Virus record (IMG/VR): IMGVR_UViG_2531839527_000011
Reading direction: 5' to 3' (one strand)
Length of the DNA stretch: 19,093 nt
Source of the DNA: a virus
Taxonomy: Duplodnaviria > Heunggongvirae > Uroviricota > Caudoviricetes
The position numbers and the translations under genes are program-made. This document shows, piece by piece, positions 8,787 through 9,501 of the stretch. Each line of letters starts with the position of its first letter. Position 1 is the first letter of the stretch. The notes under the pieces were generated by a model, which did not search any database, had not been told where the DNA came from, and worked only from the letters and a program-made list of their open reading frames with translations.

Positions 8787-9209
8787 GTGGCAAAAGTTTT
8801 TACACAAGAAGAGCGGGAAAAAATTAAAGGGCAGGTTGTTGAACTCGTACGCCAGAGTGGGCGCGAGACGTTACGACAACTGGAAACTAAAACTGGGGCA
8901 ACAAGATATCTGATGAGCGTTCTGGCCAGAGAGCTGGTTGCCAGTGGCGATGTATACAACTCTGGTTACGGGTTATTCCCGTCTGAACAGGCGCGTAAGG
9001 ACTGGCAAAATGCCCGTAAAAAGCTCTCAAGGGCAAAGCTGAAGAAACCATCTGCGGTTGATCCGGACCTTATCTGGTCATTACCTGACGGAGAAATACG
9101 TCGCTACGACAGGCGTCAGAACATAATCTGTCGCGAGTGCCGGAAGAGTGAGGTTATGCAGCGAGTGCTGGCGTTTTATCAGGGTAATTTTCAGGAGGTG
9201 ATGGCGTGA
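8787..9209 (+). CDS. Hypothetical protein (140 aa) in the P/helicase-loader position
   Basis: GTG start with AGGAGG RBS. No Walker motifs, so not a DnaC-like loader. Function unknown. Confidence 0.5.
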   Translation: MAKVFTQEEREKIKGQVVELVRQSGRETLRQLETKTGATRYLMSVLARELVASGDVYNSGYGLFPSEQARKDWQNARKKLSRAKLKKPSAVDPDLIWSLPDGEIRRYDRRQNIICRECRKSEVMQRVLAFYQGNFQEVMA

Positions 9210-9501
9210 GAGTGAGAGTCTATATCGCCGGTCCAATGACCGGGTATAAAAATTTCAACCGTGAGGCGTTTCACAATGCGGAAGAGGAACTGAAACGGGA
9301 AGGGCATACCGTTTTAAATCCGGCTGTGCTTCCGGATGGGCTGACACAGCCGCACTACATGGATATTGCATGGCAATGATTCGTTGTGTGGATGCGATTT
9401 ACATGCTGAAAGGCTGGCAGCGGTCAGCAGGTGCTAAGGCAGAACTGGCGCTGGCGGAGAAACTGGGGCATGCAGTTATTTTCCAGGAGGAGGTACAGTG
9501 A
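9206..9501 (+). pseudogene. DUF4406-like (nucleoside 2-deoxyribosyltransferase-like) gene, frameshifted
   Basis: Frame A (9206-9379) reads VRVRVYIAGPMTGYKNFNREAFHNAEEELKREGHTVLNPAVLPDGLTQPHYMDIAWQ*. Frame B (9376-9501) reads MAMIRCVDAIYMLKGWQRSAGAKAELALAEKLGHAVIFQEEVQ*. Together they give the N- and C-terminal halves typical of DUF4406 proteins (YIAGPM...NPA... then DAIYML.GW..S.GA..E). Confidence 0.5.

Follow-up and report, generated by a model that had tools for sequence, protein, structure and literature searches.

The window, that is, the whole stretch of 19,093 nucleotides that was analysed, corresponds exactly to positions 796-19888 of locus L008 and comes from the end region of contig APXN01000039.1 of the draft assembly GCA_000356385.1. 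The DUF4406 gene described here belongs to the early-right operon of a lambdoid/Rac-type E. coli prophage, where it follows the replication genes and precedes the gene for the Q antiterminator. The genes follow the order CI-like repressor, cro-like gene, YdaT-like gene, a gene for a 358-aa protein, DUF977, DUF4406, DUF4752 and Q antiterminator. The 358-aa protein has no Pfam match, and its counterpart in Escherichia phage Rac-SA53 is annotated ydaU, primosomal protein I. In the complete genomes the integrated prophage has potC as its neighbour. Within this operon, the DUF4406 gene and its surroundings comprise the following features:

9193..9198, plus strand: Shine-Dalgarno sequence AGGAGG, located 7 nt before the GTG start at 9206
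9206..9501, plus strand: entire DUF4406 pseudogene, 296 nt (297 nt and 98 codons in the intact allele)
9206..9379, plus strand: N-terminal ORF, 57 aa, GTG start, codon phase 2, sequence MRVRVYIAGPMTGYKNFNREAFHNAEEELKREGHTVLNPAVLPDGLTQPHYMDIAWQ; native residues 1-54 (..HYMDI) followed by A-W-Q and then TGA
9366..9367, plus strand: lesion site, TT where intact alleles have TTT; a 1-nt deletion that destroys the Cys55 codon TGC
9370..9501, plus strand: C-terminal ORF, 43 aa, ATG start, codon phase 1, sequence MAMIRCVDAIYMLKGWQRSAGAKAELALAEKLGHAVIFQEEVQ; native residues 56-98 (MAMIRC...QEEVQ), frame -1 with respect to the N-terminal ORF
9377..9379, plus strand: premature TGA of the N-terminal frame, overlapping, as ATGA, the ATG at 9376-9378 that encodes Met58 in the intact protein
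9498..9773, plus strand: downstream DUF4752 gene (PF15944, E 3.8e-43)

The ORF list of the window thus gives two overlapping plus-strand ORFs in different frames for this one gene (9206..9379 and 9370..9501), and Cys55 is the sole native residue that neither of them encodes. The GTG start at 9206 is the same as that used by PGAP and overlaps the stop codon of DUF977 as GTGA (9206-9209). The GTG start of DUF4752, which is preceded by AGGAGGAGG, overlaps the DUF4406 stop in the same manner (GTGA, 9498-9501), so that DUF977, DUF4406 and DUF4752 are chained by GTGA stop-start overlaps with an AGGAGG before each start. Promoter and terminator scans of positions 8700-10000 gave nothing above shuffle expectation, and no small ORF or RNA feature was supported on the minus strand.

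Other genes of the window are worth describing in their own right. The CI-like repressor gene (6222-6860, minus strand) is annotated as encoding 112 aa, with Peptidase_S24 alone, by PGAP and in most recorded gene calls. The full 212-aa ORF has an N-terminal HTH_3 match (E 1.7e-4) and would give a typical divergent region, 91 nt long, up to the cro-like gene; the repressor start is probably mis-called. The cro-like gene itself (6952-7195, plus strand) is flagged 'frameshifted' by PGAP in each of the three complete genomes inspected, NCCP 13717 among them. Its 76-aa ORF (6952-7182) matches positions 1-52 of the 60 of the P22_Cro profile and overlaps the YdaT-like gene at its end, as ATGA; any frameshift would touch the extreme C-terminus only, or may be an annotation artefact. 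Between Q and hokD, a two-gene module on the minus strand (10418-11827) opposes the operon; its products are a DUF6731 protein of 304 aa (PF20505, E 2e-12) and a protein of 159 aa that PADLOC matches weakly to RexB (E 0.0015), and the module could be a Rex-like exclusion moron. On the plus strand, at 15897-17476, a gene for a Ser/Thr kinase matching PADLOC mad6, PD-T4-6 and Stk2 (E 3e-40 to 6e-28) overlaps the PP2C phosphatase gene that comes after it. This kinase is of a known type of prophage-borne defence kinase.

Comparison of the two overlapping ORFs with the Pfam profile of DUF4406 (PF14359) assigns both of them to this family. The N-terminal ORF matches profile positions 2-53 of 91 (E 5.7e-19, 68.8 bits), the C-terminal ORF matches positions 54-91 of 91 (E 9.3e-12, 45.6 bits), and a simple fusion of both covers positions 2-91 with 125.5 bits (E 1.1e-36), all three scores exceeding the gathering threshold of 22 bits. 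The match is far beyond chance and the profile coordinates of the two halves abut exactly; since the positions adjoin, the halves are neighbouring parts of one domain. The window therefore carries the whole DUF4406 domain in two frames instead of a single uninterrupted ORF of about 95-100 aa. The truncated N-terminal product is also matched end to end by phrog_31170, a family of 55 positions (E 4.5e-45); evidently, PHROG already lists the fragment as a 'protein' family.

A search with the intact protein yielded 575 homologues, with full-length proteins of about 95-101 aa among the matches listed. We aligned 39 homologues, which share 57-91% identity with the first sequence and come from Escherichia, Salmonella, Enterobacter, Klebsiella, Kluyvera, Lelliottia, Edwardsiella, Shimwellia and other genera. 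All 39 are single ORFs of about 92-106 aa, and none of them ends naturally at the first stop. Residues Y51 M52 D53 I54 C55, S74, G76, A77 and E80 are invariant in every one of these sequences. Together with the likewise invariant Y6, A8, G9, M11, N18 and R19, they are all encoded in the window except C55, and the S74-x-G76-A77-x-x-E80 motif of the alignment lies in the C-terminal ORF. Because all aligned homologues are single ORFs with an invariant YMDIC, the single-frame state is ancestral and that of the window is derived. Furthermore, since the domain lies in two frames here and in one frame in its homologues, the window copy is a pseudogene of the family and not a functional member.

An intact allele that differs from the window by a single base is found in E. 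coli NCCP 13717 (NZ_CP115984.1, locus L002). There the same gene, at the same position after DUF977, is a single 297-nt ORF encoding a 98-aa protein (WP_001266143.1), and global alignment with the 296-nt gene of the window gives 0 mismatches and one gap. In the intact allele the sequence is CAC TAC ATG GAT ATT TGC ATG GCA ATG ATT (..YMDICMAM..), and the window reads GAT ATT GCA TGG CAA TGA at the same site. Phage Rac-SA53 (KU052037.1) also carries an intact DUF4406 gene, 'rac19', with 93.6% identity over 341 aligned bases that span the 3′ end of DUF977 and the gene. The name 'LygF' that appeared under this match was discarded, as it belongs to the neighbouring DUF977 gene and not to DUF4406. 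Unlike WP_001266143.1 and rac19, the window copy lacks one T, is split into ORFs of 57 and 43 aa, and is devoid of Cys55. We regard the event as recent because the gene is otherwise unchanged with respect to the NCCP 13717 allele. The preliminary description, made from the letters of the window, had recognized the N- and C-terminal halves of a DUF4406-type protein in different frames and had proposed that the gene was broken by a frameshift. The abutting profile positions, the loss of one T and the 39 homologues that run past the first stop bear out this interpretation. The junction had been placed near 9370-9380, where the ORFs do overlap, but the actual lesion lies 3-4 nt upstream, in the TT at 9366-9367.

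The effect of the break can be considered on the predicted fold of the intact protein. Fold comparisons were made with an intact homologue rather than with the window fragments: an AlphaFold2 model of a 96%-identical protein (pLDDT 90.7, pTM 0.83) contains the elements b1(4-8), a1(15-31), b2(35-37), a2(48-60), b3(64-67), a3(75-87) and b4(90-93). The best Foldseek matches in the PDB were nucleoside 2-deoxyribosyltransferases (NDTs; 2a0k, 8pqt, 6evs and 6qai), human DNPH1 (9da6 and 8qhr) and the CMP N-glycosidase MilB (4jem), with TMq values of 0.71-0.77 and a probability of 1.00. In addition, PHROG 355, 'nucleoside 2-deoxyribosyltransferase', gives a match at E 7e-48. The 98-aa protein is predicted to adopt a Rossmann-like alpha/beta, nucleoside 2-deoxyribosyltransferase/DNPH1-like fold. 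It resembles the NDT/DNPH1 (Rcl)/MilB superfamily in this predicted fold (2a0k, 8pqt, 6evs, 9da6 and 4jem) and in an invariant S-x-G-x-x-x-E close to the C-terminus of DUF4406, but differs in its length (98 aa versus 130-160 aa for the solved enzymes) and in that sequence similarity is insignificant. Indeed, the sequence match to PF05014 (Nuc_deoxyrib_tr) reached only 12.9 bits (E 0.12) against a cut-off of 28.8, and alignment by hhalign of the profile with an approximate sequence of human DNPH1 paired the N-terminal strand and helix only, at a non-significant probability of 0.3%. In the PDB, sequence searches found nothing with the intact protein and chance matches only with the 39-sequence profile, so that the link to NDT and DNPH1 comes solely from fold comparison. 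PADLOC and NCBIfam gave no match to the intact protein. In the papers found by a full-text search DUF4406 is mentioned only in passing, with no function given, and a search on NDT, prophages and anti-defence found nothing specific. The catalytic nucleophile of the superfamily is a Glu that follows a Ser/Gly-containing loop. By analogy, Glu80 would be the catalytic Glu of DUF4406, and the biochemical role of the protein is likewise one that we infer.

The frameshift interrupts the protein midway through predicted helix a2 (48-60), inside the invariant YMDIC. One peptide has b1-a1-b2 with YIAGPMTG and NPA; the other has b3-a3-b4 and the invariant S-x-G-x-x-x-E. A ribosome that starts at the normal GTG would proceed through residue 54, add Ala-Trp-Gln and end at the TGA at 9377-9379, while the remaining 43 codons would stay in the -1 frame. 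With the half that bears the N-terminal motifs parted from the half that bears S-x-G-x-x-x-E, the enzyme would be expected to be inactive, and loss of function is the most likely consequence. Strong polarity on DUF4752 would not be expected, because this gene has its own strong ribosome-binding site.

The distribution of the deletion was determined with two queries. A 411-bp query around the gene was 100% identical in 11 complete genomes (504838, ATCC 43896, LR882997, E8, E54, E1316, E1433, E1620, E1648, E1654 and E1739), and a 60-bp query across the junction had 100% identity in exactly the same 11. The junction query also matched 744 other complete-genome records, all with less than 99% identity. 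Each of the 18 listed among these non-carriers spans 61 bases against the 60-base query, meaning that the extra base is present. Among draft assemblies, the exact 296-nt gene was found in all eight contigs retrieved through the 57-aa product; this exact product occurs in 72 contigs, and 150 blocks of the collection index it. PGAP annotation was checked in two carrier genomes, NZ_CP025856.1 and NZ_CP024278.1. In both, the identical 296-nt sequence is annotated as 'DUF4406 domain-containing protein, frameshifted' with a pseudogene flag, so that the locus shows no difference from the resident-prophage pseudogenes that RefSeq/PGAP labels as frameshifted. When the loci were compared with L001, the DUF4406 deletion was the sole indel common to every carrier, all others being private to one assembly.

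These observations bear directly on the possibility of an assembly or sequencing error, in which the gene would be intact, with TTT, in the true genome. The draft contig whose end forms the window dates from 2013 and has five private single-base deletions in an exonuclease gene, and the DUF4406 lesion sits in a short homopolymer, as an indel error might; a run of 3 nt is not a typical error hotspot. An error would, however, have to recur in 11 complete genomes whose accessions belong to several unrelated series (CP025856, CP024278, LR882997 and CM180506-14) and in the eight other contigs. Moreover, the 18 listed non-carriers read TTT in the same local context, which excludes a systematic context-specific error. 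We give this explanation next to no weight and, from the agreement among independent assemblies, take the deletion to be real. A real deletion might nevertheless be bypassed if programmed -1 ribosomal frameshifting or transcriptional slippage restored the full-length protein. The downstream frame is indeed -1 relative to the upstream one, and an in-frame T TTA AAT heptamer is present at 9313-9319, within the segment (9265-9379) where both frames are open. Yet this is the only in-frame X XXY YYZ heptamer, it lies 50 nt upstream of the switch point that would be needed, and it merely encodes the conserved V-L-N. A shift at this point would swap 16 conserved residues, including the invariant L42, P43, G45 and YMDI, for unrelated sequence. 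In the segment where a shift would keep the conserved protein (9362-9376) there is neither a slippery sequence nor a homopolymer of at least 4 nt, and positions 9355-9450 gave no indication of a stimulatory RNA structure (minimum free energy -25.6 kcal/mol versus a shuffle mean of -26.4, z 0.29). An Rfam search downstream of the junction returned no match. The frame is continuous in all 39 aligned homologues and in every listed complete-genome record beyond the 11 carriers; the frameshift is thus missing from every homologue examined outside this allele, the opposite of a conserved recoding signal. Given the misplaced heptamer, the lack of RNA structure and of conservation, and the restriction to a single allele, both frameshifting and slippage were rejected, their probability being negligible.

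The overlap of the stop codon with an in-frame ATG implies that the C-terminal piece could in principle be translated. Both fragments might then be made, through reinitiation at the ATGA (9376-9379) or at the ATG at 9370, and associate non-covalently to give a protein that is active or altered. Cys55 is all that is missing from the pair, and both fragments are called by gene callers. On the other hand, the sequence has no Shine-Dalgarno motif before 9370 or 9376, the cut falls in mid-helix and removes an invariant residue, and the allele is limited to one closely related prophage group and has stayed unchanged since the event, which gives no sign of selection for a split state. We hence consider a split gene very unlikely, the ATGA overlap being all that speaks for a functional split protein. 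It is also highly improbable that the allele has been kept in an ETEC-associated lineage on account of a two-piece NDT-like enzyme (57 aa plus 41-43 aa through ATGA reinitiation) or of a new role of the N-terminal fragment.

We conclude, with a probability of roughly 0.93, that the DUF4406 pseudogene results from a recent, lineage-specific inactivating frameshift that is real and inherited. In the sequence of events that we propose, one T would have been lost once on this allele, from the TTT run at Ile54-Cys55 (ATT TGC). The lesion, for which we presume this single origin, is shared by a group of prophage copies that are closely related and come mostly from human diarrhoeal (ETEC-type) isolates.

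In the carrier lineage the whole prophage is eroding and decay is ongoing. The late regions of L004, L005, L006, L009, L010 and L011 bear differing deletions or rearrangements right after the DUF3927 gene, and private frameshifts affect Q, DUF968 or RusA in L009 and L002. The preliminary description had put forward two explanations for the frameshift, partial decay of the prophage or indel errors of the assembly. Decay is supported at DUF4406, where the 11 complete genomes and the eight draft contigs speak against an assembly error, and the late-region deletions across carriers and the private frameshifts in Q, DUF968 and RusA fit a prophage that is partly decayed. At the late-region junctions, the DUF3927 gene is joined to capsid E in L004, L006 and L009, to gpW and portal in L005, and to a J tail-tip fragment and Lom in L010. 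As for L002 (NZ_CP115984.1), an extra G at about 10947 splits the Q antiterminator gene into two CDS, and another extra G at about 15103 lies in RusA, which is annotated as frameshifted.

A different situation was encountered at the other broken gene of the window:

1419-3885, minus strand: exonuclease gene, 823 aa (YdfE_N, YdfE_C and Rv2179c-like domains), cut into four ORFs in the window

This gene is intact in L001 and in L004-L006. Compared with L001, the window has five single-base deletions (1594/1595, 2919/2920, 2949/2950, 3131/3132 and 3216/3217), none of them in a long homopolymer, as well as mismatches that cluster at about 3170-3205. These deletions occur in the draft contig of the window only, every other locus examined having at most one, and none is shared by complete genomes, in which the best match is 98.5% identical. 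Because the listed carriers have two to four paralogous copies of the exonuclease per genome, the deletions are probably a draft error or a collapse of paralogues, private decay being possible.

From the hokD region on, the window also departs from the L001 prophage. Positions 12520-17560 match at 99.9% a segment with Fic/Doc toxin, DUF968, RusA, Q, kinase and PP2C genes; in E1316 and E1739 this segment and the DUF4406 locus are some 143-148 kb apart. This part of the window is either that of a recombinant prophage or a draft mis-join of two lambdoid prophages.

Taken as a biological event, the DUF4406 break is an ordinary loss-of-function prophage pseudogene, already known and annotated in RefSeq as frameshifted. 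Its significance is small, since it adds one further case of a resident-prophage accessory gene inactivated by a single base, and the broken copy contributes nothing to solving the biochemical function of DUF4406. It does provide a worked example of how indels in draft contigs can be read, those shared across assemblies being real and those private to one being possibly errors. The deletion itself is a clean lineage marker for closely related prophage copies carried mostly by human diarrhoeal E. coli.
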